This document shows, piece after piece, positions 6,516 through 55,161 of a DNA stretch of 64,000 bases (positions within the stretch are counted from its first letter, which is position 1; each line of letters starts with the position of its first letter). A program made the translations under genes and the position numbers. This stretch comes from Promethearchaeota archaeon (GTDB lineage Archaea > Asgardarchaeota > Lokiarchaeia > Sigyniarchaeales > SOKP01), in NCBI GenBank assembly GCA_048939995.1, contig JBHLOY010000002.1, positions 256,001 through 320,000 on the forward strand, in the 5' to 3' direction. The notes below the pieces were generated by a model, which saw only the letters and a list, made by a program, of their open reading frames with translations, did no database searches and was not told the DNA's origin.

Positions 6516-6518
6516 GAT

Positions 6519-7847: not shown

Positions 7848-7850
7848 TGT

Positions 7851-8246: not shown

Positions 8247-8252
8247 CTTCTC

Positions 8253-20870: not shown

Positions 20871-20921
20871 TTCTTAGGAAAAAATATCTTGCAGATTTCA
20901 CAGTATTTTATCCTACTGATA

Positions 20922-20939
20922 CATTTAAACTTTTCATTT
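20922..20939 (-). promoter_or_regulatory. BRE/TATA promoter upstream of SBP copy 1 (degenerate repeat motif)
   Basis: Minus strand AAATGAAAAGTTTAAATG; flank GTATTTTATCCT resembles GTATTCTATCCT beside the motif at 29022. Confidence 0.5.
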
Positions 20940-21063
20940 AAAATAATAATCTTTCAATAAAATGATTTGAATTTATATTCTGTACGTCTGTTACAGTTTA
21001 TTGATCTATCAACACAATGTTTAAATATATTAATAATCGAATAAGAAGTTAAAAATTTGAGAC

Positions 21064-22749
21064 TTATACCCGATATATCGGATAGGCATAGAACTTACCA
21101 AAAGCATTATAAGGCACACCTCGTAGATCTGCTGAATGAACGTAATATATATTTGAATGGTAGAGAAAGATGTGAGGATATAGTCTATTGGATAAATACC
21201 ATTGAATATTTTTATAGATAATATTTCGAGCTGTATCATCTGTCGTTTCTAGAGCAAGTGTCATCATAACATTTAATTTTGTGTCATTCACTTGAGCAGC
21301 ATTAACTCTTGATATTGGGTTAAACAATGAATCAAGCTCATAAAATGGATCTTTATAATTGCGTATGCTTGGGTATATCAAAAAAAATAGACCTAATTCA
21401 TCGTGATCACTTGATAACTTTCTTAAAAATTCACTCCATGATACTTCATTAGTAATTACTTGTATTCCTATTGCAGGAAGCCAATTATTCAAAACTATTC
21501 CAATTTCCTCATATATTGCAGAACCAACATGGGTATAATTAAATGAAATAAGAGGGTTTGTTAACCAATAAATGTCATTAATATCTGAATTTATTGGGTA
21601 TCCTATAGCGATACCTGCATCAACCAAGGTTTGTCGAGCAGTTATTAAATCAAAATCTGCAGCTGAATTGGATTGATTAAAAGCAGCCCCATAACCTGGA
21701 GAGATTGGACTATTAGCTCTAATATAGGAGTTATTCTGCAGTATTTCTATTATATATGTGTAGTTAATCGCATAAGAAATTGCTTTTCTCCATGTTACAT
21801 TAATTAATTCATTATTCATACCTAGGGAAGCAAAACTAAGATCTGAAATACCATAGGTTTCAGTAAATTTTTCATAATGAATTGTAGGATTTCCTTCAAA
21901 AGTAGGGAACATACCAGTTAGAGCTCCACTTAACCAATCAATTGAATTATTTAACATTGCGTTATTTCGGTTCATATCATCAGAAATGATAGTCATAAAT
22001 AGATTTTCAAAAAAGGCTGGTTCTTTCCAATATGATTCAAAACGTCCCAATCTAATTTCGACATCTGGAACATAAAATTCATAAACAAAAGGACCAGTCC
22101 CCACAATTCTTCCAGATGTAAGATCAATATAATCATCAACTGGAGTAGCATTGGTAGATAACATAGCACCTGCAGTATAACACAATAAATCTAAGAAGGG
22201 GGCAAATGCATTATTAAGATAGATTGTTACATTATATGCATAGTCAGAGACAACGCTGTTTATGATAGGGGTCACTCCATCAGAGAAATAATACAAAGAA
22301 GCGGGTGCTCCTACCTCTATACTACTTGGTAAAGTCCCTGTGCAATTGAATAAATATAACATTCTATCTAAGTTCCATTTAGTAGCATTCGCGTCAAACG
22401 GTGTGAGATCCTGAAACGTAATATCTTCTCTTAGTTTAATGTGAAGTGTTGTTGTATTTTCCCACCAATAACTTTCAGCTAGGTGAGGGACTCGTGGTAA
22501 ACTGTGATCCAAAAGATTGTATGTAAAAAGCGTTTCCACAACTTGTTCAATGACTAAATTAGATGATGAATCAAATGAGTTCACAGGATCAAGCACTTGT
22601 GGTGGTGATGAAAGCCCAACTATAAGGGTTCTAGATACAGGTACTCTAAGCCTTGCGTTTGGTAATCCAATTATAATATTAATAACTCCAAAACTAACCA
22701 TTACAACTGCCAATACAAGAATGGCAATATTTTTCTTTTTATAACCCAT
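21064..22749 (-). CDS. ABC transporter solute-binding protein, family 5, copy 2
   Basis: Same motifs as copy 1 (VLDP, ETLFTY, LAESYWW, VGTGPF, WRKAISYAINY). Confidence 0.9.
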   Translation of the reverse strand: MGYKKKNIAILVLAVVMVSFGVINIIIGLPNARLRVPVSRTLIVGLSSPPQVLDPVNSFDSSSNLVIEQVVETLFTYNLLDHSLPRVPHLAESYWWENTTTLHIKLREDITFQDLTPFDANATKWNLDRMLYLFNCTGTLPSSIEVGAPASLYYFSDGVTPIINSVVSDYAYNVTIYLNNAFAPFLDLLCYTAGAMLSTNATPVDDYIDLTSGRIVGTGPFVYEFYVPDVEIRLGRFESYWKEPAFFENLFMTIISDDMNRNNAMLNNSIDWLSGALTGMFPTFEGNPTIHYEKFTETYGISDLSFASLGMNNELINVTWRKAISYAINYTYIIEILQNNSYIRANSPISPGYGAAFNQSNSAADFDLITARQTLVDAGIAIGYPINSDINDIYWLTNPLISFNYTHVGSAIYEEIGIVLNNWLPAIGIQVITNEVSWSEFLRKLSSDHDELGLFFLIYPSIRNYKDPFYELDSLFNPISRVNAAQVNDTKLNVMMTLALETTDDTARNIIYKNIQWYLSNRLYPHIFLYHSNIYYVHSADLRGVPYNAFGKFYAYPIYRV

Positions 22750-22819
22750 TTAATAATATTTTCTCCTAAGTTAATGTTTTTTAGATTAATTATAGTTAAA
22801 AAAGTATGTTCTATGAAGA

Positions 22820-22841
22820 CATATAAAGTTTTTGTCAATTT
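22820..22841 (-). promoter_or_regulatory. BRE/TATA promoter with upstream TGACA, before SBP copy 2
   Basis: Minus strand AAATTGACAAAAACTTTATATG; near-identical at 25213 and 29022. Confidence 0.65.
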
Positions 22842-22894
22842 ATCTAACCCAAAAAAATTTAATTATTTCATAAACTGTTCAAGATTTCTAAAGG

Positions 22895-24601
22895 TCAATC
22901 CCTATATGTTGGATATACATATAACTTTCCCATAAAATTGTAAGGAACGTTCCTTATATTAGCTGAATGAACAAATACTATCTTTGGGTGAAATCCAAAG
23001 CAATGTGGGTATAATCTATTAGCCAGATACCATTGAATATTTTTATAGAGGGTATTTCTTGCAGTATTATCTGTTGTTTGGAAAGCAAGATTCATCATAG
23101 TATTTAGTTTTGAGTCATTTACTTGAACAGAATTTAGGTAGGAGATAGGATTAAAGAGTGAATTGAGCATATTAAAGGGTTCAAGAATTTGATTTGATTT
23201 CCAATCAAGCCAAAAAAGCCCTAATTTATTATGATCACCTATGATTCTCCTATTAAATTCACTCTTTGGTAGTTCATCATCTATTAATTGTATCCCTATT
23301 GCTGGAAGCGTAGAATTTAATTGATTACAAATATCATCTCTAAAGGAATTTCCACTATCATAAGTATAGTTAACTATAAATAAAGTGCTTCCTAACCAGG
23401 TGGCATCAATTGGATCAGCATTCACTGGGAACCCGGAAGCTGCAGGGACATTATCGACAATTATTTGGCGAGCAACTTGCAAATCATAATCTGGTGCTGA
23501 GTTGGATGCATTCCATGCTGACCCATATCCAAGAGATATCGGACTATTAGCTCTAACCGCTAAATCCAACATTAAATCTTCAATAATATATGTGTAATTA
23601 ATAGTGTAAGAGATTGCTTTTCTCCAATAAATAGGAATTTCAATTGTATTCATACCGAGGTAATAGTAATCCAAACCAGGAATACCATAGCTATCAGTAA
23701 ATTTCATAGCTGTAATCGTAGGGTCTGCTTCAAATGTGGGAATTAATTCAGGGATAAATCCATCGAGCCAATCAATTTCATGTCCTAACATTGCATTGTT
23801 CCTAGTCGTAGGGTTATTAATGAAAGCTATAATCACATCTGAGAACCAAGGGGCTCCTCCCCAATTATAATCAAAACGAGCTAGACGAACTTCAACATTA
23901 GGAACATAATGCTCAAAAATAAACGGTCCTGTTCCCACAATTGTTCCATATATAAGAGATATATAATTATCTTCTGGAGTTGAGCTTGGAGAAAGTATGG
24001 AACTTGATGGATGACATAATATGTCCAAAAAAGGGGCATAATACCCATTAAGATAAATAGTTACATTATAGGCACCATCAGAATCTACATGATTTATGAT
24101 AGGAGTTTCCCCATCTGGAAAGAAGTATAATGATGCTGACTTTGCTGTATATTTTGTGCCGGGTAGAGTCTCTGTACAATTAGTCAAGTATAACAATCTA
24201 TCAATGTTCCATTTAGTAGCATTTGCATTAAAATCAGTAAAATCATGGAATATAATATTTTCCCGAAGTTTTATATGAAGTGTTGTTGTGTTTTCCCACC
24301 AATAGCTCTCCACTAATTTTGGGATACGTGGTAAAGATTGATTGGAAAAATCGTAAGTAAAGAGTGTTTCAGCTAATTGTTCGATCACAAAATTAGAATT
24401 TCTGTCTGTTGAATTTAATGGATCAAGAGTAGAAGGAGGATTCGGATACCCTATGACGAGAGTCCCTGATGGCTGAGGAAGTGGAAAAGGATAAGTCCTA
24501 GGTTGATTAATTATGATTAAATAACCAAAGAAGGCTATATTTAGAATTATTCCTATGATTATGATACTATTAAGTAATTTATCCTTTTCTTTTCCTCTCA
24601 A
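22895..24601 (-). CDS. ABC transporter solute-binding protein, family 5, copy 3
   Basis: Same family motifs; paralog of the neighbouring copies. Confidence 0.9.
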   Translation of the reverse strand: MRGKEKDKLLNSIIIIGIILNIAFFGYLIIINQPRTYPFPLPQPSGTLVIGYPNPPSTLDPLNSTDRNSNFVIEQLAETLFTYDFSNQSLPRIPKLVESYWWENTTTLHIKLRENIIFHDFTDFNANATKWNIDRLLYLTNCTETLPGTKYTAKSASLYFFPDGETPIINHVDSDGAYNVTIYLNGYYAPFLDILCHPSSSILSPSSTPEDNYISLIYGTIVGTGPFIFEHYVPNVEVRLARFDYNWGGAPWFSDVIIAFINNPTTRNNAMLGHEIDWLDGFIPELIPTFEADPTITAMKFTDSYGIPGLDYYYLGMNTIEIPIYWRKAISYTINYTYIIEDLMLDLAVRANSPISLGYGSAWNASNSAPDYDLQVARQIIVDNVPAASGFPVNADPIDATWLGSTLFIVNYTYDSGNSFRDDICNQLNSTLPAIGIQLIDDELPKSEFNRRIIGDHNKLGLFWLDWKSNQILEPFNMLNSLFNPISYLNSVQVNDSKLNTMMNLAFQTTDNTARNTLYKNIQWYLANRLYPHCFGFHPKIVFVHSANIRNVPYNFMGKLYVYPTYRD

Positions 24602-24634
24602 TATCTATTTTCCTCTAATATAAGAAATTATTTT

Positions 24635-25192
24635 TTAAATAAAATATAATGCTTGAAAAGGAAATATCCACAAGCTGATGCCTATACCTAATATGAAAGT
24701 AGCAAAATTCGCCTCTAATATGCTTAAACCAGTTACTTTTGCAGGGATTGGAGATCGAAAATAACCTCTACTTAAAAATTGTTTAAATATCTTCAATAAT
24801 AATAAGAATTCTAAGATAACTGGAATTAATTCAATTATGAAATAAAAAATAAACGATGTCTGTATAAATGTGATGGCAACCATTTGCGTTAGTGGATAAG
24901 TAAGTAAATTAACGGACACAACTGCCTTACGCAGCTTTGATTTCAATAAATTCTCTGATACAATTGTCTTACGCAATTTTGATCTCTTTGTATTATCATT
25001 TTTTAGAAAATGATAAATAATATTAAACTCTATTACGTAGGTTAAATAAAAGAGTATAGTATAAAGGTGAAATACAGCTCCCGGATGAATTGAATAAACA
25101 GGAATTGGATTTCCCCAAGCGAGAGGAATATTTATTAAGAAGACCCCTAAACAAAGCAAAAAGAGTTGTATAATCCGTTTAATCTTCATCAT
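24635..25192 (-). CDS. Membrane protein (signal-like N-terminus, NPIP motif) with internal 14-aa duplication
   Basis: Start reassigned to ATG at 25192 (MMKIKR...) because the track start at 25231 lies inside the promoter motif; several TMs; SKLRKTIVSENLL / SKLRKAVVSVNLL. Confidence 0.7.
   Translation of the reverse strand: MMKIKRIIQLFLLCLGVFLINIPLAWGNPIPVYSIHPGAVFHLYTILFYLTYVIEFNIIYHFLKNDNTKRSKLRKTIVSENLLKSKLRKAVVSVNLLTYPLTQMVAITFIQTSFIFYFIIELIPVILEFLLLLKIFKQFLSRGYFRSPIPAKVTGLSILEANFATFILGIGISLWIFPFQALYFI
24902..24983. repeat. Imperfect in-frame 42-bp tandem duplication
   Basis: aagtaaattaacggacacaactgccttacgcagctttgat vs caataaattctctgatacaattgtcttacgcaattttgat, offset 42 nt. Confidence 0.7.
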
Positions 25193-25470
25193 AGATCTGT
25201 TTTTTGTGTAACCATATAAAGTTTTTGACATTTAATTCTAAAAATCAAATATGTACCCATATAGAGTGGGGGGTTTATTGAGTCTTTAATTTTGCTACCT
25301 TCTAAGAATATATAGATGATTTTAAACTCTATTAAATAAGTGATATAAAAGAATATTGTATAAAATGTAACCCCTAGAAATCCTAGATAAATTGGATAAA
25401 CTATAGATGATGCAGTTAATGCAATAATTATTCCTACAATAAAAATACATTTCTTATCTTCTTTTAGCAT
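25189..25470 (-). pseudogene. Chimeric/truncated gene: SBP-type membrane anchor fused to a segment of the NPIP membrane protein
   Basis: KKCIFIVGIIIALTAS resembles SBP KKNIIIVGLAIALAAS; YTIFFYITYLIEFKIIYIFL resembles YTILFYLTYVIEFNIIYHFL of the next gene; the tail reads through that gene's promoter. Confidence 0.55.
25213..25233 (-). promoter_or_regulatory. BRE/TATA promoter with upstream TGTCA, probably giving a leaderless transcript
   Basis: Minus strand AAATGTCAAAAACTTTATATG; TTTATAT lies 22-28 nt upstream of ATG 25192. Confidence 0.65.
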
Positions 25471-25507
25471 TTGACTATAACATCTTATAATCTAATTGAA
25501 AATTCAC

Positions 25508-27214
25508 TTATACCCTATATACTGGATAGACGTAAACCTTGTTCAAAGCATTATACTGAACCCCATGTAAATCTGCTTTATGAACATAAATCATTTTTGA
25601 ATGATATCCGAAACATTGCGGGAATAGCCGATTAGACAGGTACCATTGGATATTTTTATAAATAGTATTTCTTGCAGTATCATCTGTCGTTTGCAAAGCC
25701 AGATTCAACAAATTATTCAATTTTGTGTCATTCACTTGAACAGAGTTAGCGTATGATGTAGGATTAAATATTAGATCAAGCATATTAAATGGATCCTTAT
25801 AATCTGGAGCCCAACCCACCCAAAAAAGATGAAATTCATCCTGGTCTTCAAATAACTTTCTTAAGAATGCAGCCCAAATGACTCCGTCGTCAATTACTTG
25901 TATACCTATTGCTGGAAGCCAAACTTCCAATGCATCATATATATCTTCTCTGATTGAATTGCCTATATTATAAGTATAATTCAATGAAATAAGAGGGTTA
26001 GTTAACCAATAAGGATCACTAAGATTTGCGTTTATTGGGTATCCTACAGCAATACCCGCATCCACCAAAATCTGTCTAGCGATGATTAAATCATAATCTG
26101 CTGCACCAATAGAAGCGTTATAAGCATCCCCAAAACCGGGTGAGATTGGTGAATTTGCTCTAACTACAAAGTCATTAAGTAATTCTTCTATAATATAAGT
26201 GTAATTAATCGCATAGGATATTGCTTTTCTCCAAGGGAGACTGATGTGTTTATTATTCATACCAAGATATTGATAATCTAATCTCGGGAGACCATAAATA
26301 TCAGTGAATTTCATTACAGTTGCATAATCATATGTTTCAATTGTAGAAATGTCATATGTTAGGAAATTTGTGGGCCAGTCAACATCATAATCTATTATAT
26401 ATGGACATCTCCATGTTGGGTCATAAAAAACGACAATTATTTCTTTGAAAAAAGGTTCTTCTTGCCAATATAGACGAAAAGAATCCAGTCTTAATTCAGC
26501 TACATAACTTTTATAACGAGGTAAGAAATATTTATATATAAAAGGACCAGTTCCCACAATTCTTTCATATTTCGGTTCAATATAAGAATTATCTCGAGTA
26601 GAATAGGGAGATACCATAGCAGAAGATATATGGCATAATAAGTCTAAAAAAGGAGCATAAGAACCATTGAGAAAGATAGTTACGTTGTACTCTCTATTAG
26701 AATCGACATGATTTATGATTGGAGTTACCCCATCAGGCATAAAATATAACGAAGCATATTCACCGAGACTTATGGTGCTTGGAAGTAAGCTCGTACAATT
26801 AGAAAGATATAGTATTCTGTCGAAATTCCATTTCGTTGTATTTGCATTAAAAGCGGTTAGATCATGGAATAAAATGCCTTCTCTAAGTTTTATATGAAGC
26901 GTGGTTGCATTTTCCCACCAATAACTCTCTGCTAAATGTGGAATTCGTGGTAAACTAAGGCTGGAAAGATTATATGTAAAAAGGGTTTCAACTACTTGTT
27001 CTAGAAAAAGTTTCGATGCAAAATCCACAGCATTTAAGGGATCAAGAATGAGGGTAGCTGGGTTAGCACTGAGAACCAATGGTTTGTTAGGAGTAATTTC
27101 TGGTTGAAGTTGCCGAGTAGCAAGTAGTACATTACCTACTCCCGATGCTGCTAATGCAATAGCAAGCCCAACAATAATAATATTTTTTTTTTCAAATATT
27201 CCTACTTTCCGCAA
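25508..27214 (-). CDS. ABC transporter solute-binding protein, family 5, copy 4
   Basis: Same family motifs; TTG start. Confidence 0.9.
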   Translation of the reverse strand: MRKVGIFEKKNIIIVGLAIALAASGVGNVLLATRQLQPEITPNKPLVLSANPATLILDPLNAVDFASKLFLEQVVETLFTYNLSSLSLPRIPHLAESYWWENATTLHIKLREGILFHDLTAFNANTTKWNFDRILYLSNCTSLLPSTISLGEYASLYFMPDGVTPIINHVDSNREYNVTIFLNGSYAPFLDLLCHISSAMVSPYSTRDNSYIEPKYERIVGTGPFIYKYFLPRYKSYVAELRLDSFRLYWQEEPFFKEIIVVFYDPTWRCPYIIDYDVDWPTNFLTYDISTIETYDYATVMKFTDIYGLPRLDYQYLGMNNKHISLPWRKAISYAINYTYIIEELLNDFVVRANSPISPGFGDAYNASIGAADYDLIIARQILVDAGIAVGYPINANLSDPYWLTNPLISLNYTYNIGNSIREDIYDALEVWLPAIGIQVIDDGVIWAAFLRKLFEDQDEFHLFWVGWAPDYKDPFNMLDLIFNPTSYANSVQVNDTKLNNLLNLALQTTDDTARNTIYKNIQWYLSNRLFPQCFGYHSKMIYVHKADLHGVQYNALNKVYVYPVYRV

Positions 27215-27251
27215 TTAACTAAGCCTTCTTTTAATCTAATTAAAATTTTTC

Positions 27252-28946
27252 TTATACCCTGTATACAGGATAAGCGTAAAACCTAGTTAGAGCATTATAC
27301 GGTATCCCATGTAAATCTACTTTATGGATATAAAAGATTTTTGGATGATATCCGAAGCATTGCGGGAATAGTCGATTGGATAAATACCATTGTATATTTT
27401 TATAAATAATGTTCCTCGCAGTATCATCTGTCGTCTGTAAGGCAAGTACCAGCATAGCATTTAATTTAGTATCATTCACTTGAGCAGAGTTAGCATATGA
27501 TGTTGGATTAAATAATTGATCAAGCATAGTAAAGGGATCCTTATAGTCCGGACCCCACCCTACCCAAAAGAGATGCAGTTCGTCCTGGGTTTCAAATAGC
27601 TTTTTAAGATAAGCACTCCAAGTTACTCCATCATCTATTACTTGTATTCCTATTGCCGGAAGCCAAGTTAACAACGCGTCATATATATCTTCTCTGAAAG
27701 AGTTTCCAATATTGTAGGTATAATTCAATGAAATAAGAGGGTTAGATAACCAATAGATATCATTAGGATCAGAGTTTATTGGATATCCTGCAGCAATACC
27801 TGCGCCAACTAAAGTTTGTCTTGCCATGTTTAAATCAAAATTCGCGGCATTAACAGATGCATTGTGAGAATCCCCAAAACTAGGTGATATAGGGGAATTC
27901 GCTCGCACCCCCAAGTTGTTCATTAATTCTTCAATAATGAAAGAGTAATTAATCGCATAGGATATTGCTTTTCTCCATGTGACATTGATTTTTTTATTAT
28001 TCATACCAAGGTAGTAATATATTAATCCAGGAAGATTATAATTGTCAGTAAAATGTTCTACGTGAATTGCGGGATCTTCATCAAAAGTTGAAATTAATGA
28101 AGGTATAAGACTAGTTAGCCAGTCGATTTCATATTTTGGTGGAGTACCACCACAATTACGAGTTGTATAACATCTAATCCAATAAGGATAAGCATATAGA
28201 ATTATTTCTTCGAGGAATGGCGCCCCTTGCCAATAGGATTCAAAACCCCTAAGTTTCACTTCAATATTAGGAACGTAGTATTCATATATAAATGGACCAG
28301 TTCCAATAAGTCTTCCATAAGTACGAGAAATGAAATCATCATCTGGAGTGGATGTGGGAGATAACATTGCGCTAGCTATGTAGCATAAAAGATCTAAGAA
28401 AGGAGCAAAAGGGGCATTTAGAGTGATCGTTACATTATAAGTACCATCAGAAACGACATTATTTATGATAGGAGTCACTCCGTCGGAGAAAAAATATAGT
28501 AAAGAAGGGTCTCCAGGAACCATTGTGTCTGGGAGGATTCCAGTACAATTAGTTAGATATAATAATCTATCTAAGTTCCATTTTGTAGCATTTGCATTAA
28601 AAGGAGTTAAATCATGGAAAAAAATTCCTTCTCTAACCTTTATGTGAAGAATAGTATCAGATTCCCACCAATAACTTTCAGCAAGGAGAGGAACACGTGG
28701 TAAAGCATGATCCGAAAGATCATAAGTAAAAAGTGTTTCAACAACTTGGTCAAATACTCTTAGAGATGCATATTCCAAACAATTTACTGGATCAAGAACA
28801 TAAAGACTTGGATCTGGACCTATCACGAGCCTTTTATTAAGAGGGAGTTCTCCTTGATATGGGGTAGATACAAGTATCACATTTCCTACTCCAGATGCAG
28901 CTAACGCGATAACCAATCCGATAATGATGATATTTTTCTTTTCCAT
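27252..28946 (-). CDS. ABC transporter solute-binding protein, family 5, copy 5
   Basis: Same family motifs; closest to copy 4 in the C-terminal third. Confidence 0.9.
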   Translation of the reverse strand: MEKKNIIIIGLVIALAASGVGNVILVSTPYQGELPLNKRLVIGPDPSLYVLDPVNCLEYASLRVFDQVVETLFTYDLSDHALPRVPLLAESYWWESDTILHIKVREGIFFHDLTPFNANATKWNLDRLLYLTNCTGILPDTMVPGDPSLLYFFSDGVTPIINNVVSDGTYNVTITLNAPFAPFLDLLCYIASAMLSPTSTPDDDFISRTYGRLIGTGPFIYEYYVPNIEVKLRGFESYWQGAPFLEEIILYAYPYWIRCYTTRNCGGTPPKYEIDWLTSLIPSLISTFDEDPAIHVEHFTDNYNLPGLIYYYLGMNNKKINVTWRKAISYAINYSFIIEELMNNLGVRANSPISPSFGDSHNASVNAANFDLNMARQTLVGAGIAAGYPINSDPNDIYWLSNPLISLNYTYNIGNSFREDIYDALLTWLPAIGIQVIDDGVTWSAYLKKLFETQDELHLFWVGWGPDYKDPFTMLDQLFNPTSYANSAQVNDTKLNAMLVLALQTTDDTARNIIYKNIQWYLSNRLFPQCFGYHPKIFYIHKVDLHGIPYNALTRFYAYPVYRV

Positions 28947-31845: not shown

Positions 31846-33129
31846 ATGAAAGAATTAAGAAAAAAACTAAGAATTCCAGATAAGGCTTTAAAAACGGTTA
31901 ATGAATTCATTTTAGATGAAAATAATCCATTAATTAACGATCTTTTCGAGTTATTGGATAAATATGGTGGGATAGAGGAGATTAATAGAAAAGCGAAAGA
32001 AGCTTCCAAAATTGAGAATTTAATTCATCAATTAGAAAGGATTAATTCAGATTATGTAAAGGATATTGAATGGCTTACAAATCAGAGAGATAAGAAAGCA
32101 TTCATTAGTTTAACTGAATATCGCGAAAAAATTTTAGGAGAAAAAGCATTAGAGATGGAATTTAACGAAGATATTGCTGTAACTTTAGAACTATCAGCAT
32201 GTCAGTATTTTCCTTTCCTTATAGATATCACTAAAGATGCTATTGAGACTCAACAGTTAGTTCCAGGGAGGATTATACGTGTTAGAAATATGAAAGAACA
32301 AGAAAAAGATGGAGATTTAATTGCAATGGCTGCAGCAATGCAAATTATAGGATCGAGTTGGGTTGAAACACTAGATACAAAAGGTACTGCCCCTGGTCCA
32401 GATGGGCTCCCTGTCAATGTACATCTAGGGGGACCAGATACAATTACTGGTTATTTTGGCGGTGTTGGTCAACCAAATGACTATGCTTTAAAATGGATTG
32501 ATGAATTCCTATACTATTATACTAATTATGGAATAAGGCAAGTTCTTAATGTAAATCCCGGAACGGTCCTCCTTGGTTATTTTATTTATAAATTAGGCAT
32601 CAATAATGAATTTAAAATCAGTGTATATATGGGAAATGATAATCCTTATTCATGTCTTTGGACTCTTTTAACTGCTAAACTATTCGCACGAGAAGATGGA
32701 ACTAGCCCTTTAATTGGTTTTAATCTTGCTAATTCGGTAAATAATGAAACTCTTGAATTAGCTGCTTATATCAGAAAAGAATTCAATTTTGAAGATGTAG
32801 TTAGACTTGAACATCATATTACTGAAACTTGGAAAAGTATAGTAAGACAACCTTATGATAGGAGAGATGAGCTCTTAGAATTAGCACCTAAAGTAAAGAA
32901 CGTAAGTGCTAAACATGAAGGAGGAGATGTTGAAGTAGAAGAAAAAAGAGAACACCCTACAGATATACTTGAATATTTCATGCCAAAAGAAGAATTGAAG
33001 AAAGCTGGATTATGGGATTTCTTACGTATAAATCATCTTGACAGATATCGGGCTGTGAATCACACAGCTCAAGTGCTAACAGAAAAAGGAATTCCATTTA
33101 TTGCTGCGAAGAATTTACATTATCGATAG
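31846..33129 (+). CDS. Conserved-looking soluble protein of unknown function
   Basis: 427-aa ORF with enzyme-like Gly-rich blocks (ETLDTKGT, NVHLGGPDTITGYFGGVGQPN, KISVYMGNDN, EHH, KHEGGD); no family recognised. Confidence 0.8.
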   Translation: MKELRKKLRIPDKALKTVNEFILDENNPLINDLFELLDKYGGIEEINRKAKEASKIENLIHQLERINSDYVKDIEWLTNQRDKKAFISLTEYREKILGEKALEMEFNEDIAVTLELSACQYFPFLIDITKDAIETQQLVPGRIIRVRNMKEQEKDGDLIAMAAAMQIIGSSWVETLDTKGTAPGPDGLPVNVHLGGPDTITGYFGGVGQPNDYALKWIDEFLYYYTNYGIRQVLNVNPGTVLLGYFIYKLGINNEFKISVYMGNDNPYSCLWTLLTAKLFAREDGTSPLIGFNLANSVNNETLELAAYIRKEFNFEDVVRLEHHITETWKSIVRQPYDRRDELLELAPKVKNVSAKHEGGDVEVEEKREHPTDILEYFMPKEELKKAGLWDFLRINHLDRYRAVNHTAQVLTEKGIPFIAAKNLHYR

Positions 33130-33141
33130 AAGAAAGGTGAC

Positions 33142-33991
33142 ATGAAACACGAATATTTTACCTCAATATTTCAAGCAATTATTGAAAGTATATCGCAGAA
33201 ACATTATTTATTTGCTGAAAAAAATAATTTTAAATTTTTTTTTTCAATTAACTAAAACAGAATATCTGATTGAAAATATTAACTCTGTTCTTGAAAAGTA
33301 TAATTCTTATATGACTTACTTTGTCACTGGATACATTCTTGAAGGTCATCCTGAAAGAGTGAATCTTTTTAAAAATTCACCGCATATAGCTCTTCCCCAT
33401 GGCTATAAACATTTTAATCTACAAGAATTAACGGTTCCTCAGGCAATTCAAGAAATAAAGAAATCTAAACAAACGTTTGATGACAATCATCTTGAATCAT
33501 GGTGTTTCCGTGCACCATATGCAGTGAATTCCATCAGTAGTCTAGGAACAGCTAAATTCTATGAAATACTTAAAGAGATGGGATTCCTATGTTCCAGTTC
33601 AGAATTTCAAGAGAATCCACCTTGGAAACCAGTAAATCAATTTATTCCTGAATATGTAATGGCAAGACCTAGCGATGATCAACTCATTGATAAAATGGGA
33701 ATTTGGGATGCAAAACTTATCGCTAAACATTTTATTAAATCAATTTGTAGTACTAAAGGCTCAATTATAATTTTTGATATGCATCCCATACGAATGGGGC
33801 AAAAAAAGTTCATAATTGCATTAGATGCTATTTGTAAGTTTGTGGAGAGAGATTCTAAATCAATTTTAATCGGATTCAAAGAAGCTGTAGAAAGTTATAG
33901 GAAAGAACAAGAGAAAAATTTTGTATGTATTACAGGTGATATTGACACATGGTCATATTTTGACTATATTAGGAGATTGAAAACTAGATAA
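33142..33991 (+). CDS. Polysaccharide deacetylase-like protein, apparently frameshifted at a T10 tract
   Basis: TYFVTG, HGYKH, FRAPY, DMHP motifs. ATG 33142 follows GGTGA, and its frame would join the main ORF if the T10 at 33235-33244 were T9. The track gives an alternative TTG start at 33182. Confidence 0.7.
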
Positions 33992-34063
33992 TATATAAAC
34001 CTTCAAGAACAGCTTATTAGTAATATGAATTTAATTTAAGAAAAAAGGAATATTAAAAAAAAT

Positions 34064-34615
34064 ATGAGTAAATTTTCTCGAGAAAAAGAATTAAAGCTCC
34101 GAGAGAAATTAGAGCAAATTAAGAAAAAAAGAAGGAAAACCATATTTGGGCGATTTATGGTTAGATTTATTAATGTTTTAGCAAGGCACATACCGGGTGG
34201 ATTTACACGAGCAAGATTGCATAAAATAAAAGGCGTGGTAATGGGTAAAAATGTATGGATAGGGGAAGATGTTTATATAGATAATGAGTATCCCTTTTTA
34301 ATTTTCATTGAAGATAATGTAGAAATTGCTGCTTATTCGATGATTATGGCCCACGGGAGAGATTTACATCTTCTCCGACCAGGGATGTATGTGTCAGATT
34401 TAGGGTATCCACCTTCACCAGTGAGAATTAAAAAAGGATGTTGGCTAGGATTACACAGTATTGTCTTAGGAGGAGTAACAATCGGTGAGGGTTCTGTTAT
34501 TGCTGCTGGATCCGTTGTTACAAAAGATATACCGGATTTTGCGCTTGCTGGTGGAACCCCGGCAAAAGTAATTAAATATTTACCTGGTTCAAAAAATTAT
34601 ATCTCAAAAGAATAG
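34064..34615 (+). CDS. Hexapeptide-repeat (LbH) sugar O-acyltransferase
   Basis: GKNVWIGEDVYID, IEDNVEI, VRIKKGCWLG..SIVLGGVTIGEGSVIAAGSVVTKDIP...GGTPAK. Confidence 0.9.
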   Translation: MSKFSREKELKLREKLEQIKKKRRKTIFGRFMVRFINVLARHIPGGFTRARLHKIKGVVMGKNVWIGEDVYIDNEYPFLIFIEDNVEIAAYSMIMAHGRDLHLLRPGMYVSDLGYPPSPVRIKKGCWLGLHSIVLGGVTIGEGSVIAAGSVVTKDIPDFALAGGTPAKVIKYLPGSKNYISKE

Positions 34616-34632
34616 ATGAAATAATAATTATT

Positions 34633-36120
34633 ATGAGTAAATTTAGTTTTAGACCAATTGGTGTCATGCCGGCTCTAATAACTCCATTTAATAAAGATGA
34701 GTCCATAAATGAAGAACAATTAAGAAACTTAATAAATTATCTTATTGAACAAGGAGTTAATGGGCTTGTTCCAGTTGGTACAACTGGAGAATTTGTAAAT
34801 ATGACATTCCAAGAACGTTTGGAAGTCATTAAAATTGTTGTAGATGAAACAAATGGACGTATACCAGTTATAGCTGGAACTGGAGAAACTGGAACAAAAC
34901 TAGTCGTAGATGCTACTAAAGCTGCAACAGATATTGGAGTTGATGCTGTACTTATCGTTACACCTTATTATCTGAAACCAAAGGCAAAAGGGTTATATGA
35001 TCATTACTTTACGATTGCTGAAAAAACAGATATTCCTATAGTTTTGTACAATATACCTGCTTGTACAGGAGTAGAATTACCTTGGACTGTCGTGGAGGAT
35101 TTAGTAGATATTGAAAATATAGTTGGTATTAAAGACTCTAGTGGAGATTATAAATATTTCTCAGCTTTATTAGAGAAAGTTAGCGATAAAATTTCAGTTC
35201 TTATTGGATGGGATGAAAACGTATTAGGTGCCCTCGCAGGAGGCGCTGCTGGATGCATTCTAGGATCGGCAAATGTATTTCCTAAATTTTGGCTTGAGAT
35301 TTATAATTGTGTTAGAAATAATCAATTGCAAGAGGCTCAATTGCTTCAAAAGAAGGTTCAAAAATTAGCTCGATTATTAATTAATTCTGGGGCGCTTGGG
35401 GTTAAATCATGCCTAAATATGATGAACATTCCAGTCGGAAAGACACGACAACCGCTCGTTTTGGGAGATACACTCTCATATGAAATAAAGGATGAATTAC
35501 GAGTAGAATTAGAAAAGTTAGGATTAATTGAAAAATCAGAAATTCAATTTGAATTTGGAGATAAACCCCTAATAAGCCGCTTCTATGCTGTTGGAATTAC
35601 ACCACAGAAAATTTCTGATTTTGGATTAAAAGTGGGAGAATCGCTTGTAGGGGAACGTGTGGAACTAGCACATATTGACATACTGATTGGTAAAAAAGAT
35701 GGCCCAGTTGGTAATGCTTATGCTCAAGCATTAACCAACCCAGAAGAAGGTCGTGAAGGGCTTCAAGTTATATTAGAACCTAATATGCAAGTAAAGCCAC
35801 CAACAATTATGATTCCCACAGTGAGACCTACCTCGCTTCGCCACGCTAGCTTAACCTATGGACCTGCTCAAGCCGCTATTGCAAAAGCAGTTATGCAATG
35901 TGTTGAAGACGGCATTCTTCCTAAAGAATTAGGAGATGAAATTGTGTTAATTGTCAATGTTTTTGTCCATCCTAGTGCTAGCGCAAGAAAACGAGTATTT
36001 ATCAATAATTATAAAGCAACTAGAAATGCTATCAGAAAAGCAATGGAAGGAGTGCCGACTGTAGAAGATGGAATTGAAAATATGGAAAATGCTAGACATC
36101 CATTCAGAAATGATCCTTAA
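34633..36120 (+). CDS. Fusion: DapA/NanA-family class I aldolase + formaldehyde-activating enzyme (Fae)
   Basis: N-terminal: ITPF, GTTGEF, TPYY, LYNIP, GIKDSSG. C-terminal from about 35626: VGESLVG..ELAHIDILIG, KPPT, GPAQAAIAKAV, VFVHP, NYKAT..AI..AM, HPF. Confidence 0.9.
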   Translation: MSKFSFRPIGVMPALITPFNKDESINEEQLRNLINYLIEQGVNGLVPVGTTGEFVNMTFQERLEVIKIVVDETNGRIPVIAGTGETGTKLVVDATKAATDIGVDAVLIVTPYYLKPKAKGLYDHYFTIAEKTDIPIVLYNIPACTGVELPWTVVEDLVDIENIVGIKDSSGDYKYFSALLEKVSDKISVLIGWDENVLGALAGGAAGCILGSANVFPKFWLEIYNCVRNNQLQEAQLLQKKVQKLARLLINSGALGVKSCLNMMNIPVGKTRQPLVLGDTLSYEIKDELRVELEKLGLIEKSEIQFEFGDKPLISRFYAVGITPQKISDFGLKVGESLVGERVELAHIDILIGKKDGPVGNAYAQALTNPEEGREGLQVILEPNMQVKPPTIMIPTVRPTSLRHASLTYGPAQAAIAKAVMQCVEDGILPKELGDEIVLIVNVFVHPSASARKRVFINNYKATRNAIRKAMEGVPTVEDGIENMENARHPFRNDP

Positions 36121-43566: not shown

Positions 43567-44733
43567 ATGGCAAACTTCTGCTATAATTGTAATCGATGTG
43601 TGAATGTTTGTCCACTCTCTCATATTGATGTTTTTTACCCTCAAAAATTAATAGTTGATTTAGTCTCATCACCTATAGAAGAGGTTATAAAAAATCATAA
43701 TATCTGGGATTGTCTTACGTGTGGTCTCTGCAGTAATTATTGTCCTATGACAGAGGGAAAATTTGGGGTAAAATTTCCTGAGTTAATCTTAGAGTTAAGA
43801 AAACTGGGTCTCAATAATAGTACTCAAGTAGATAAAATCATCCAATGCGAAACTCATGATGAAATCTTTCCTCTTATATCAAGAATAATGTCAGATGATA
43901 AATTAAGTCCAAATAAGTTAGAATTTCTAAAAAGCACAGCCTTAAAAACTACAAGCTCAGGCGAGATTGCATATTTTACGGGATGTTTACCTCTCATGGA
44001 GAATATTTTTTATAAATCAGATGTAAATTATTTAAACATTCCAAAAACTATAATTGGTTTACTTAATGAGGCTAATATATCCCCAGTCGTCTTAAATGAA
44101 AAATGTTGTGGACATGATATATTATGGGGCAAAGGAGATATTAACACTTTTAAAAAGCTAGCTGAATATAATGTAAAACTTTATAGAGATGCAGGAGTCA
44201 AAACCATCATTCTAGGATGCGCAGAAGGTTATAGAACTTGGAAATTCGACTATCCAAAAGTTATAAAAGATTATGATTTTGAAGTTCTTCATTTCTCTGA
44301 ATTCTTTCTTAAAGAAAATATCCTTGAAAATGTTAGATTCCCACGAGAAACCAAGATAAAAGTCACTTATCATGACGCTTGCAGATTGGGGCGTTTAGGA
44401 GGAAAATTATATGATGCTCCAAGGAATTTACTTAAAAAGATTCCCGGAGTAGAATTAATTGAGATGAAAAACATTAAAGATGATGCTAATTGTTGTGGAG
44501 TTTCAGCATTTATAGGATGCAACGAATCAACCCGCGTTTTTAGACAGAACCGAATTAATGAAGCTATAGAAACTGGAGCAGATTATTTAATTGTACCTTG
44601 CCCCAAATGCTGGACTCATTTTGATTGTTATCTTAATGAGCCCTCCTTAGATGATGAACATAAAGATTTAAAAAATAAAATTAAAGTAATAGATTTAGCA
44701 AGCTTTATTGGCGAATTACTTTTCCTAGTTTAA
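43567..44733 (+). CDS. HdrD/GlpC-like Fe-S oxidoreductase (2x4Fe-4S + CCG domains)
   Basis: CYNCNRCVNVCP, CLTCGLCSNYCP, YFTGC, EKCCG, YHDACRLGR, NCCG, PCPKC. Confidence 0.88.
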   Translation: MANFCYNCNRCVNVCPLSHIDVFYPQKLIVDLVSSPIEEVIKNHNIWDCLTCGLCSNYCPMTEGKFGVKFPELILELRKLGLNNSTQVDKIIQCETHDEIFPLISRIMSDDKLSPNKLEFLKSTALKTTSSGEIAYFTGCLPLMENIFYKSDVNYLNIPKTIIGLLNEANISPVVLNEKCCGHDILWGKGDINTFKKLAEYNVKLYRDAGVKTIILGCAEGYRTWKFDYPKVIKDYDFEVLHFSEFFLKENILENVRFPRETKIKVTYHDACRLGRLGGKLYDAPRNLLKKIPGVELIEMKNIKDDANCCGVSAFIGCNESTRVFRQNRINEAIETGADYLIVPCPKCWTHFDCYLNEPSLDDEHKDLKNKIKVIDLASFIGELLFLV

Positions 44734-44789
44734 AAGACAATGGAATGTAAAATGTCAGAATGTGATAAATAAAAATTTTTAGATGTAAT

Positions 44790-47700
44790 ATGAGTGAAAA
44801 TAACAAAGTAGGAGCTGCATTAGTTATAGGAGCAGGGATTGGGGGATGTCAAGCAGCGTTAGATTTAGCAAATTCAGGTATAAAGGTTTATCTGGTTGAG
44901 AAAAATCCTTCCATTGGTGGCGTAATGGCTCAATTAGATAAGACTTTTCCGACGAATGATTGTTCCATGTGTATTCTAGCTCCAAAACTTGTAGCAGTAG
45001 ATAGAGATCCTAACATTGAATTGATAACTTATGCGGATGTCCTAAGTGTTAAAGGAAACGCAGGTAACTTTAATGTTACAATTAATAAAAGGACAAGGTA
45101 TATCATTGAAGATAAATGTACAGGCTGCGGAGAATGTATTCAACAATGTCCCGTTCAAATGCCTGATGAGTTTAATCAAGGACTGAGTGATCGGAAAGCA
45201 ATGTATCTTCAATTCCCTCAAGCTGTACCTTTTAAAACATTGATAGATAAAAGAGGAATATCTCCTTGCAGAGATGCATGTCCTGCTCACATAAACACGC
45301 AGGGATATGTTGGTTTGATTTCTAAAGGAAAATATCAAGAGGCTTTGGACCTTATAAGAGAAAGATGTCCCCTTCCATCTGTGATTGGTCGTATTTGTCC
45401 TCACTATTGCGAAGATGCTTGTAATAGGAAGGAAATTGATGAACCAGTAAATATTTGTGGACTGAAAAGATTTGTAGCTGACCACATAAGAGAGAATTTT
45501 GAAGAAAAAATCACTTTTTTGGAGGAAAAGAAAGAAGATAAAGTAGCTATCATTGGTTCAGGTCCTGCAGGATTAACTGTTGCATATCATTTAGCTAGAA
45601 GAGGCTACCCAGTAACTATTTTTGAAAAAGAATCAGTCCCTGGAGGAATGCTTAGAATAGGTATACCTGATTATCGATTACCACCTGAAATCTTGGAAGC
45701 AGATATTGATCATATCAAAAAATATGGCGTAGAAATAAAAACAAATGCTTGCTTTGGGCCAGATCTTACTTTCAGCGATTTAAAGAAGCAAGGATACAAA
45801 GCTATATTCATTTCTATAGGGCTTCATAAAAGTCGTGAAATGAAAATAGAAGGGGATGATCTTAAAAATGTATTATATGGAGTAGAATTTCTTAGAAATT
45901 TAAATTTGGCAATAGAAACTCCTAATATCAAGGATAAAATTGTTGGTGTAGTTGGCGGAGGAGATGTAGCTATGGATGCTGCTCGCTCTGCGCTTCGATT
46001 AGGTGCAAAAAAAGTTATCATTATTTATAGACGTTCTGAAAACGAAATGCCTGCTTCGAAAGAAGAAATTGAAATGTCAAAGGAAGAGGGCATAGAATTC
46101 CAATTCTTAACTAATCCAGTAAAAATTTATGGAGATAAATCTAAAAAAGTAACTGAAATAGAATGTGTTCGAATGGAACTAGGCGAACTTGATGCTTCAG
46201 GAAGAAGAAGACCTATGCCAATAAAAAATTCTGAGTATAAAATGAAAATTGACACAGTTATATTAGCCATCGGCCAAGAAGCAGATTTCTCTTTATTACA
46301 AGCTGCCTGTCAAGATGAATTAGAATTTGATCAATCAAATCTGATTCAAATTAATAAAAAAACTTTTGAAACTAATATCCCTGGAATCTTCGCAGGCGGT
46401 GAAATTGTAAAAGGTCCTGGTTCAGCAATAGAAGCTATAGCCATTGGAAATAAAGTAGCAATAACACTTGAAAAATTTCTAAAAGATGAAGTAATTACAG
46501 AAGAATTAGAAACGATCCCTGATTATCGTGAGGAAGAAATTATTGGAATGGACGATATTGAGAACATTGAGAGATTCTCATGTCAAGAACGAAAAGAATG
46601 TAGTGTATGCATGCCTGATGAACGGATAATGAATTTCGAAGAAGAAACTAGAACTATGACAGAACAAGAAGCGATTGAAGAAGCAAACCGTTGCCTGAAT
46701 TGTGCTTCTTGTTGTGAATGTTTTGAATGTGTGAGAGCTTGTATGGCTGATGCTGTTGATCATACCTTAAAGAATGAGTTACTTTCTATTAATGTTGGAG
46801 CTATAATATTAGCACTTGGTTCTGATGTATATATTCCCGGAGAAGGAAATGTTTATGGCTATGGTGAATATAAGAATGTTATCACAAGTATAGCATTTGA
46901 AAGAATATTAAATGCATCTGGACCATTTAAAGGAGAGGTTGTTCGTCCATCAGATCATACGACTCCTAAAAAAATCGCATTTTTACATTGTGTTGGTTCT
47001 AGGGATAAAAAAATAGGTCATGAATATTGCTCATCAATGTGTTGCATGTACACAACCAAAGAAGCAGTAATTGCAAAAGAACATTCTGAAAACGTTGAAC
47101 CAACAGTTTTTTCTATGGATCTAAGAGCACATGGAAAAGATTTTGAGAAATATATTGAGAGAGCTAAGAACGATTATGGGATAAGATACATTCGAAGTAG
47201 AATCTCTTCTATAACAGAAATTCCTGATTCTGAAGACTTAAAAATAAAATTTGAAACAGAAGAAGGAAAAGTGGTTGAAGAGATTTTCAATTTGGTTGTT
47301 TTATCGGTTGGTATACAACCCAATTCAACAGTATCAACATTAGCAAAAGAATTAAATATCGAACTAAATGAGTATGGTTTTTGTAAGACTGAGAGATTTA
47401 ATCCAAGTGAAACGTCACGACCAGGAGTTTATGTATGTGGCACTTTTAAAGAACCAAAAGATATACCAGAAACAGTTATAGAAGCTAGTGCTGCTGCTGG
47501 AGCAGTAAACGTACTTTTATCTGATGTTAGGGATACATTAGTAGCTCAAGAAAAACATTTTGAGGAACGTGACATAACTGGGGAAGAAACTCGTATTGGA
47601 GTATTTGTATGCCATTGTGGAATCAATATTGGAGGAGTTGTAGATGTTCCAGAAGTAGTTGACTATGCTAGTACTTTACCAGATGTTGTATATGCTGAAA

Positions 47701-49736
47701 GAAACCTTTATACATGTTCGGCGGATACGCAAACTATTATAAAGGAGAAAATAAAGGAACATAATCTAAATAGAGTAATTGTAGCATCATGCACTCCAAG
47801 AACCCATGAGCCGTTATTTCAAGCTACTATTAGAGAAGCAGGGTTAAACAAATATCTTTTTGACTTAGCGAATATTAGGGACCAATGTTCTTGGGTACAT
47901 ATGCATTCTCCAGAAGAAGCTACAGAAAAAGCTAAAGATTTGGTGAGAATGTCTGTTGCGAAAGCTAGGAATTTAGTCCCATTACAAGAACAAAAAGTAG
48001 ATGTAATTCATAAAGGCTTGATAATTGGAGGTGGTGTAGCTGGAATGACAGCAGCTTTGAATCTAGCCGATCAGGGCTATAATGTATATCTTGTTGAAAA
48101 AACCCATCGATTAGGAGGGTTTGCTCAAAAGGTATATCAAACTTTGGAAAATGAGGATGTCCAAAATTTGATTTCAAATTTGATTGATAAAGTGACAAAT
48201 CATAAGCTAATTAAGGTCTTTTTGAGAGCAAACATTAATTCTATAACTGGTTATATAGGAAATTTTGCTACAGAAATAAACTACGGAGACAGTAATGAAG
48301 TAGAGAAAGTGGAACATGGAATCATTATCGTAGCTACGGGTGCAAATGAGTATATACCTAAGGATAGTGAATATCTCTATAATCAAGATAATAAAGTTAT
48401 AACTCAATCAAAATTTGAAGAAATTCTTTTTGAAGACGATAAAAAGTTAAAGGAATTAAAGTCAATTGTAATGATCCAATGTATTGGTTCCAGAAACGAA
48501 GAAAATCCGTATTGTAGTCGAATGTGTTGTGCAGAGGCTATAAAAAATGCGATAAAAGCAAAACAGATTAATCCTGATCTAAATATAATTATTTTATTCC
48601 GAGATATAAGAACTTATGGCTTTAAGGAAAAATATTATAACTTAGCTAGAGAAAAAGGAATTTTATTTATTAGATTTGATGAAGATAATCCACCTGAACT
48701 TATTAAAGAAAATAATCAATTACAGATTTTGTTACATAAAACAGATATAGGAGAATTAAAAACTAGCGCTGATTTAGTGGTTTTAAGTGCTGGAATTGTA
48801 GCTCCTAATGAAAATTCAGAGCTTGCAAAATTATTAAAAGTACCTCTTAATGAGGATAAATTTTTTTTAGAAGCTCATGTTAAATTAAGGCCAAGTGATT
48901 TTGCAACAGAAGGAATATTTTTGTGCGGTACTGCCAGAGGCCCTGCTAATATAACTGAAAGCATAGCTCAAGCGAATTCTGCCGCAGCAAGAGCCATGAC
49001 AATCCTTTCTAAAGACATTTTATTAACTGAAGGAGTTACAGCTAATGTTAACGAAGAAAAATGTATTGGATGTGGAAGATGTGCTGAAATATGTCCTTAT
49101 AATGCTATTGAGTTATTAGAAAGCACCAAACAAATGGGATTATATGATAACGAATTAAAGAAAGCACAAGTAATTAAGGCTTTATGTAAGGGATGTGGTA
49201 CATGTTTTGCTGAATGTCCCGTTTCTGCAATTTCTATGAGTCATTTTGGGAATAAACAAATAAAGCCAATGATCAGCGAAGCAGCAATACATGAAGAAAA
49301 AGCTTGGGAACCAAAAATTGTGGCATTTTTATGCAATTGGTGTTCTTATGCAGGAGCAGATTTGGCTGGGGTAAGCCGGTATCAATATCCGCCTAATGTG
49401 AGAATCATAAGAGTTATGTGCTCAGGAGGTATGTCTAAAAGTTATATCCTTGAAGCATTTTTAAACGGTGCTGATGGTGTATTTGTAGCTGGATGTCATA
49501 TTGGCGATTGCCATTATATAAGCGGGAATGAAAATGCATATCTTCGATTGGATAATCTCAAGGAGTTGTTAAAAAAGATAGGTCTTGAAGAAGAAAGAAT
49601 TTATGTAACACAAGTTTCAGCTAGTGAAGGAAGGCAATTTGCAGAGGTTATATCAGAATTTACAGAAAAAATTAAAAAATTAGGAGAAACAAGAATACCT
49701 TCAGAAAAAAGAAAAGTAAAGGTTGAATCCGTTTAA
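44790..49736 (+). CDS. Multidomain HdrA-family flavoprotein (HdrL-like): HdrA with GltD/NfnB-like NAD(P)H insert + second HdrA module + MvhD
   Basis: GAGIGG, DKTFPTNDCSMC; insert PCRDACP..IGRICPHYCEDAC..GSGPAG..GGGDVAMD..EANRCLNC; HCVGSRD; second module VFVCHCG..GGGVAG..QCIGSR; C-terminal FLCNWCSYAGAD..RVMCSG..GCHIGDCHY. Confidence 0.9.
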   Translation: MSENNKVGAALVIGAGIGGCQAALDLANSGIKVYLVEKNPSIGGVMAQLDKTFPTNDCSMCILAPKLVAVDRDPNIELITYADVLSVKGNAGNFNVTINKRTRYIIEDKCTGCGECIQQCPVQMPDEFNQGLSDRKAMYLQFPQAVPFKTLIDKRGISPCRDACPAHINTQGYVGLISKGKYQEALDLIRERCPLPSVIGRICPHYCEDACNRKEIDEPVNICGLKRFVADHIRENFEEKITFLEEKKEDKVAIIGSGPAGLTVAYHLARRGYPVTIFEKESVPGGMLRIGIPDYRLPPEILEADIDHIKKYGVEIKTNACFGPDLTFSDLKKQGYKAIFISIGLHKSREMKIEGDDLKNVLYGVEFLRNLNLAIETPNIKDKIVGVVGGGDVAMDAARSALRLGAKKVIIIYRRSENEMPASKEEIEMSKEEGIEFQFLTNPVKIYGDKSKKVTEIECVRMELGELDASGRRRPMPIKNSEYKMKIDTVILAIGQEADFSLLQAACQDELEFDQSNLIQINKKTFETNIPGIFAGGEIVKGPGSAIEAIAIGNKVAITLEKFLKDEVITEELETIPDYREEEIIGMDDIENIERFSCQERKECSVCMPDERIMNFEEETRTMTEQEAIEEANRCLNCASCCECFECVRACMADAVDHTLKNELLSINVGAIILALGSDVYIPGEGNVYGYGEYKNVITSIAFERILNASGPFKGEVVRPSDHTTPKKIAFLHCVGSRDKKIGHEYCSSMCCMYTTKEAVIAKEHSENVEPTVFSMDLRAHGKDFEKYIERAKNDYGIRYIRSRISSITEIPDSEDLKIKFETEEGKVVEEIFNLVVLSVGIQPNSTVSTLAKELNIELNEYGFCKTERFNPSETSRPGVYVCGTFKEPKDIPETVIEASAAAGAVNVLLSDVRDTLVAQEKHFEERDITGEETRIGVFVCHCGINIGGVVDVPEVVDYASTLPDVVYAERNLYTCSADTQTIIKEKIKEHNLNRVIVASCTPRTHEPLFQATIREAGLNKYLFDLANIRDQCSWVHMHSPEEATEKAKDLVRMSVAKARNLVPLQEQKVDVIHKGLIIGGGVAGMTAALNLADQGYNVYLVEKTHRLGGFAQKVYQTLENEDVQNLISNLIDKVTNHKLIKVFLRANINSITGYIGNFATEINYGDSNEVEKVEHGIIIVATGANEYIPKDSEYLYNQDNKVITQSKFEEILFEDDKKLKELKSIVMIQCIGSRNEENPYCSRMCCAEAIKNAIKAKQINPDLNIIILFRDIRTYGFKEKYYNLAREKGILFIRFDEDNPPELIKENNQLQILLHKTDIGELKTSADLVVLSAGIVAPNENSELAKLLKVPLNEDKFFLEAHVKLRPSDFATEGIFLCGTARGPANITESIAQANSAAARAMTILSKDILLTEGVTANVNEEKCIGCGRCAEICPYNAIELLESTKQMGLYDNELKKAQVIKALCKGCGTCFAECPVSAISMSHFGNKQIKPMISEAAIHEEKAWEPKIVAFLCNWCSYAGADLAGVSRYQYPPNVRIIRVMCSGGMSKSYILEAFLNGADGVFVAGCHIGDCHYISGNENAYLRLDNLKELLKKIGLEEERIYVTQVSASEGRQFAEVISEFTEKIKKLGETRIPSEKRKVKVESV

Positions 49737-49742
49737 AGTTAT

Positions 49743-51633: not shown

Positions 51634-51649
51634 TCTCTAAATTACCTCT

Positions 51650-52663: not shown

Positions 52664-52667
52664 AATA

Positions 52668-55147: not shown

Positions 55148-55161
55148 TTATATCTAACCTT

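Follow-up and report, generated by a model that had tools for sequence, protein, structure and literature searches.

A single gene of a Promethearchaeota archaeon, found within a stretch of 64,000 nucleotides of contig JBHLOY010000002.1 (hereafter, the window), encodes a class I aldolase fused to a formaldehyde-activating enzyme (Fae) domain, and this gene is real, widespread and misannotated (Table 1). From sequence and gene content we put at roughly 50% the probability that its product is an aldolase dedicated to 4-hydroxy-2-oxobutyrate (HOB) and coupled to Fae, acting chiefly as the closing step of a catabolic pathway. The two parts of the protein match Pfam DHDPS (PF00701; 264 bits, E 1e-78) and Pfam Fae (PF08714; 184 bits, E 3e-54, 158 of 159 model positions), the latter part is recognised by TIGR03126 (182 bits, cut-off 118), and the frame is open for all 495 codons. 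An earlier note on this DNA had described one ORF joining a DapA-family barrel to a complete Fae domain, and that description holds, including the motifs GTTGE, YNIPACTG, GIKDSSG and AHID. The whole protein also passes the dapA model TIGR00674 (253 bits, cut-off 206), which accounts for the DapA names it bears in databases.

Table 1. Features of the aldolase-Fae fusion and of the genes upstream of it (positions are those of the window).
Feature	Position	Strand	Remarks
Barrel A, partner gene	31846..33129	+	427 aa; outside any Pfam family; TIM-barrel fold predicted; immediately precedes the fusion in relatives
Polysaccharide-deacetylase-like and hexapeptide acetyltransferase genes	33182..34615	+	separate barrel A from the fusion; arrangement shared only by L008 and L010
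Aldolase-Fae fusion ORF (P0001)	34633..36120	+	495 aa, open throughout
DHDPS/NAL-family class I aldolase domain (aa 10-293)	34660..35511	+	Thr50, Thr51, Tyr113, Tyr139 and Lys167 intact
Cys144, at DapA Arg138 position	35062..35064	+	constant among 120 close homologues; distant members show Cys, Val or Leu
Lys167, Schiff-base lysine (DapA Lys161)	35131..35133	+	alignment with E. coli DapA
GWDE motif (aa 192-195), replacing DapA GDD	35206..35217	+	G[WH]DE family-wide; nearer NanA/YagE GYD[ED]
Complete Fae domain (aa 334-491)	35632..36105	+	AHID, EPN, GPAQ and C-terminal HPF arm
His347 (Fae His22)	35671..35673	+	alignment to 1Y60; invariant in 120 homologues
Thr396, at Fae Lys71 position	35818..35820	+	Thr in 120/120 close homologues and nearly all fusions

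The best 120 homologues of the fusion are all 476–505 aa long, contain both domains and share 82–95% identity with it. Together with the 79 genome loci found to carry the fusion, mostly Promethearchaeota by title, these homologues rule out an assembly artefact or a fusion limited to a single genome, and they mark the host as an Asgard archaeon of Lokiarchaeia type. The earlier note had counted a fusion confined to this assembly as a refutation; it was found in 80 of 161 sampled Asgard (Promethearchaeota) genomes, as well as on Thermoproteota contigs and on metagenome contigs that we call Bathyarchaeia-like from the genes they carry and not from their labels. Copies labelled Nanopelagicaceae or Anaerolineae (L051; P0074, P0394) probably come from mis-binned archaeal contigs, and those of L051 and P0074 share 84% identity with the query. 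No published description of an aldolase-Fae fusion was found in the literature searched, where the papers on Atabeyarchaeia and Culexarchaeia mention only Fae-Hps or Fae. A scan for promoters and terminators with bacterial consensus sequences returned chance-level matches.

Alignment of the aldolase domain with E. coli DapA pairs Tyr133 with Tyr139 and Lys161 with Lys167, and Thr44, Thr45 and Tyr107 are also shared (Thr50, Thr51 and Tyr113 of the fusion). Of the positions that we take to bind aspartate semialdehyde (ASA) in DapA, Arg138, Asp187 and Asn248 are changed to Cys144 (the substitution that the earlier note had pointed out), Trp193 and Gly253, respectively, and Asp188 corresponds to Asp194, while the genome's own DapA keeps all four residues. 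Cysteine at the Arg138 position is typical of the subclade, other members of the fusion family having Val or Leu; YNIPx[CVL]T together with G[WH]DE is the signature of the family. All fusion aldolases, 46 of the 92 rows in a quick maximum-likelihood tree, group in a single clade (SH-aLRT 96) set apart from E. coli DapA, the genome's own DapA, NanA and YagE/YjhH. Curated models of related aldolases also score far below their cut-offs (bits/cut-off: NanA, 196/281; HpaI, 195/397; KdgD, 120/374; archaeal KDG aldolase, 113/390). A separate, arginine-containing dapA accompanied by dapB, which the earlier note had suggested looking for along with an aldolase tree, is present elsewhere in the genome (C37:7585-8499, dapB directly after), with lysA- and dapF-like genes adjoining. 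The proposal that the fusion is not the DapA of lysine synthesis is thus well borne out, and such a role appears very unlikely. A further DHDPS-like domain, degenerate and without the Schiff-base lysine motif, occurs in a 680-aa protein of the same genome (G000 C19:110167-112209, L003) that has a phosphotransferase-like C-terminal part; its gene comes after those of a sugar kinase and a dehydrogenase/class II aldolase.

The Fae domain looks to be in use. Alignment to 1Y60 agrees with the earlier note that the catalytic histidine is kept: His22, which from the Fae structure we take to be the catalytic residue, corresponds to His347. Asp24 (Asp349, invariant in 120 fusion homologues), the GPAQ glutamine (Gln88) and the C-terminal HPF arm are matched as well, and these, like His22, are presumably functional sites. 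Mean identity is 88.5% over the Fae domain, 87.3% over the aldolase domain and 74% over the linker. Lys71, assumed here to lie near or contact the pterin, is kept in 1Y60 and in the genome's own Fae-Hps; its replacement by threonine in the fusion, which the earlier note had not remarked on, means that pterin binding or chemistry may differ. In some lineages the fusion occurs as tandem pairs, one copy having AH[IV]D and HPF and the other EPNL and GP[AV]Q. The Fae active site lies between subunits, and given this arrangement, the complementary losses suggest that a composite Fae site is under selection. Such pairs were seen at L123, L125, L130-L135, L304, L306 and L308, with damaged aldolase motifs in some second copies; tandem pairs are present also on contigs labelled Thermoproteota/Korarchaeota, and a Thorarchaeia-type pair is known.

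The genome has Mch and Mtd of the H4MPT C1 pathway, encoded outside the window, and the fusion was not found in Asgard families that lack the H4MPT marker Mch. The earlier note had called on fwd genes as evidence for this chemistry; fwd-like genes do occur in the window (5664-8969), but they are recognised by sequence only and lie about 26 kb from the fusion. Elsewhere in the window, a heterodisulfide-reductase-like cluster (43567-56720) includes a 1648-aa HdrA-like protein with what looks like an MvhD-like domain at its C-terminal end, and a second HdrA/B/C-like set, again judged by sequence, is found in the same interval. On the minus strand (19173-28946) are five similar, nearly tandem genes for peptide-ABC-type substrate-binding proteins of 561–568 aa, with no permease genes between them.

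The fusion has a nearly constant partner, passed over in the earlier note: a gene for one of two predicted TIM barrels. Barrel A lies upstream in 74 of 80 Lokiarchaeia-type loci (six loci are truncated on that side) and is a divergent neighbour of the fusion on the Bathyarchaeia-like contigs; in other Asgard families, the gene for a 312-aa protein, barrel B, adjoins the fusion. In counts tallied by hand from tables, here and below, over genomes that are related, partly incomplete and not independent, one of the two barrels, but never both together, occurs in 77 of 80 fusion genomes, and within the window's own family barrel A is present in 23 of 24 fusion genomes and in none of the 10 others. 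Because the genomes are kin, Fisher tests are given no weight here. Two genomes of one genus (L254 and L261) carry either barrel A or barrel B at one locus. The deacetylase-like/hexapeptide pair that parts barrel A from the fusion in this genome is a local insertion, probably unrelated to the fusion.

Neither barrel matches a Pfam family, and both model as generic TIM barrels without a specific fold match, the model of barrel A being weak (pLDDT 66). They share the short motifs FKISV..G..NP and K.EG; a comparison of their profiles was not significant, so the case for their kinship rests on these motifs and on the locus swap. Barrel B falls near Atlas clusters in which 17–23% of members carry PF01136, and a fold search gave Z 14.0 to the U32 protein Mk0906, tied with other barrels; the U32 family goes with a cysteine-bound Fe-S motif, and no invariant cysteine is present in the barrel B alignment. 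The barrel A family is large, with at least 8000 sequence clusters. Other neighbourhoods of these genes, seen at single loci, count as hints in keeping with the HOB proposal. A second DHDPS-like subfamily is fused to barrel A on one contig (L287:2979-5258, P0390) and adjoins it in another genome (G081, L253:6085-8417), barrel A adjoins panB at L218, and in other loci it lies by amino-acid and 2-hydroxy-acid dehydrogenase-like genes. A truncated barrel B is directly upstream of dmpF-dmpG on a Mycobacterium plasmid (L289:8986-11542), among genes for an amine permease, an aldehyde dehydrogenase and a P450.

The genomes that have a barrel and no fusion point to a candidate metabolite. There are 29 of these, 25 of them without Mch, and ten loci from Mch-lacking lineages carry, in this order, barrel A and genes for a class I/II aminotransferase, homoserine dehydrogenase (Hom) and an aldehyde oxidoreductase (AOR). 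This operon was seen at L247-L251, L255-L257, L263 and L265, in some cases with a PatB-like gene after it. In one family (f5), Hom is present in 13 of 14 barrel-positive genomes and in 0 of 4 others. The families with the operon mostly lack asd (0/18, 1/8 and 0/1 genomes) and largely lack MetX and the ASA sulfurtransferase family too, for which reason Hom would most simply oxidise homoserine towards aspartate. HOB is the one compound linking the aldol of pyruvate and formaldehyde to homoserine by transamination (PMC11259041, PMC8879981). Since it can be either cleaved by a pyruvate aldolase or transaminated to homoserine, the gene content points to HOB as the metabolite common to the fusion and the barrel operon. 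A side activity that splits HOB into pyruvate and formaldehyde is reported for two members of the DHDPS family, YagE and NanA (PMC12709889). The earlier note had offered HOB as an example of a substrate; the barrel operon, with its aminotransferase and Hom in lineages where H4MPT is missing, lends that choice independent support.

The following mechanism is proposed. The partner TIM barrel would make HOB from an upstream C4 substrate, for which candidates are a 4-substituted 2-oxobutyrate (from transamination of methionine or homocysteine), 2-oxo-3-butenoate or a four-carbon sugar acid. Lys167 would form a Schiff base with HOB, and a retro-aldol step would release pyruvate and formaldehyde. 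The fused Fae would condense the formaldehyde with H4MPT, pulling the cleavage forward and keeping free formaldehyde low, and the resulting methylene-H4MPT would enter the Mtd/Mch branch. The net reaction would resemble that of a hydroxymethyltransferase and should be reversible. With somewhat less assurance, short of an even chance, the same reasoning extends to an HOB pathway of anaerobic archaea and bacteria, in which the new TIM-barrel family makes HOB (e.g., from the keto acid of methionine or homocysteine), and HOB is disposed of either by the aldolase-Fae fusion or, where H4MPT is missing, by transamination, Hom and AOR to aspartate. Against cleavage of HOB by the fusion, Hom is also present in 12 fusion genomes, and in this genome barrel A does not adjoin the fusion, two unrelated genes lying in between.

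An unlikely reading, although the foremost of the alternatives, is that the aldolase acts on some other 4-hydroxy-2-oxo acid or sugar-acid derivative, with Fae as a pterin-binding, regulatory or oligomer-forming domain, or one that handles formaldehyde from another source. The threonine at the Lys71 position would fit such a role, as would the intact Fae-Hps already in the genome (C11:75034-76326), the likeness of G[WH]DE to the NanA/YagE motif, and the presence of barrel B in sugar-acid operons of Thermomicrobium and Streptomyces. However, conservation of the Fae histidine, aspartate, glutamine and HPF arm, and the absence of the fusion from Mch-less families, argue for a working Fae, and the Hom/aminotransferase operon indicates a C4 acid with a terminal hydroxyl.

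It is also improbable, and a little more so, that HOB is made and not split, i.e., that Fae frees formaldehyde from methylene-H4MPT and the aldolase adds it to pyruvate, the HOB going on to homoserine or to a barrel product such as, for example, 4-thio-2-oxobutyrate on the way to methionine. Aldol condensation with formaldehyde is a favourable reaction that has been made to operate in engineered E. coli (PMC11259041), and Fae-Hps is a Fae fusion able to serve biosynthesis. Hom is, moreover, rarer in fusion genomes (12/80, against 53/81 of the others), also within the window's family (6/24 against 9/10), as would be expected if the fusion took its place, these being tallies over the same non-independent genomes. 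In that family, however, Hom is located with threonine synthase, once with ThrH as well, and at the corresponding locus this genome has neither Hom nor threonine synthase; ThrC accompanies Hom in 14 of 15 genomes and is present in only 1 of 18 that have the fusion and lack Hom. ThrC thus goes missing along with Hom, which disfavours a replacement of Hom by the fusion for threonine synthesis. The idea that the fusion stands in for the known homocysteine route or for PF01053 lyases was rejected as well, no pattern of exclusion being seen.

Hom, ThrB, ThrH and MetX have no match in this genome, which is 98% complete; the score of its ThrC-like gene falls short of the cut-off, and the product is without the arginine found in Hom-linked ThrC. 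ThrC-like genes that do exceed the family cut-off occur in several other families with the fusion, and those examined are without the PLP lysine or the arginine of Hom-linked ThrC. A ThrC-like protein with a C-terminal helix-turn-helix-like part adjoins an ECF S-component gene (L260:4715-6193, L203:1381-2868; G000 C28:84298-85626); its Thorarchaeia-type copies lack the PLP lysine and in many genomes lie two genes from barrel A. The ASA-sulfurtransferase-family gene is found in the window's family both with and without the fusion, which also speaks against a biosynthetic role; here this family (PF01837) is represented only by the shorter, lower-scoring paralogue (C5:19284-20474), most relatives having two. 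Synthesis would further oblige AOR to reduce aspartate in the barrel operon of asd-less lineages; AOR could run reductively, and gene content gives no direction. Since the genome has no recognised use for homoserine, cleavage of HOB to pyruvate and methylene-H4MPT is favoured over homoserine synthesis, in keeping with the cleavage example in the earlier note.

That the fusion is simply a second, divergent dihydrodipicolinate synthase is hardly credible: it exceeds the TIGR00674 cut-off, its best solved relatives are DHDPS and both NCBI and JGI names say DapA, yet the ASA-binding residues are replaced, its clade is separate, a true dapA adjoins dapB, and the fusion is common in some families that mostly lack asd (present in 8/35, 0/14 and 0/3 genomes of families f7, f12 and f13), leaving no ASA to use.

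Compared with known systems, the HOB aldolase-Fae proposed here appears to be an analogue of the Fae-Hps fusions (bifunctional H4MPT hydro-lyase/3-hexulose-6-phosphate synthase, NF009833) with a different aldolase. Both would combine Fae with a formaldehyde aldolase and couple release to capture, but here the aldolase is a Schiff-base pyruvate enzyme of class I in place of Hps and precedes the Fae domain, and threonine replaces Lys71; against NF009833 the fusion scores 146 bits (cut-off 274) over the Fae part only, there being no C-terminal Hps domain. With DapA it has in common the fold, the two threonines, the two tyrosines and the Schiff-base lysine, and differs in its extra Fae domain and in not lying beside dapB, as well as in the residues and clade described above. 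YagE/YjhH and NanA are like the fusion in having a residue other than arginine at position 138 and an aromatic residue at 187, and a side activity on HOB is reported (PMC12709889); they have other main substrates, fall outside the fusion clade and carry no Fae. YagE is paired with a dehydratase, and the fusion may likewise pair with its barrel.

The synthetic HOB routes (the homoserine cycle and the C1 bypass of Bouzon et al.) run from pyruvate and formaldehyde through HOB to homoserine by means of an aldolase and a transaminase (PMC11259041, PMC8879981). They are engineered from promiscuous enzymes (class II RhmA), use free formaldehyde and treat HOB as non-natural, whereas the fusion would be natural, dedicated and H4MPT-coupled. 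A parallel in logic is DmpG/DmpF (MhpE/MhpF), in which a 4-hydroxy-2-oxo acid is cleaved to pyruvate and a volatile aldehyde that is trapped by a joined enzyme, as proposed for the fusion; there, however, the aldolase is class II and acetaldehyde passes to CoA, in place of formaldehyde to H4MPT, and the two systems are not homologous.

If the proposal is correct, no natural aldolase dedicated to HOB would have been described before the fusion, which, being assembled from two enzymes, would also be the H4MPT equivalent of a hydroxymethyltransferase. Synthetic C1 pathways now borrow this activity from weak side reactions, and since E. coli HOB biosensor strains exist, an initial test would be simple. 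A testable reaction would also be named for the large barrel A enzyme family. The dapA label would be wrong in about half of the sampled Asgard genomes, inflating calls of the lysine pathway, and behind it would be a hidden entry of carbon into the H4MPT branch, which could feed H2 or formate production in peptide-fermenting Asgard archaea.
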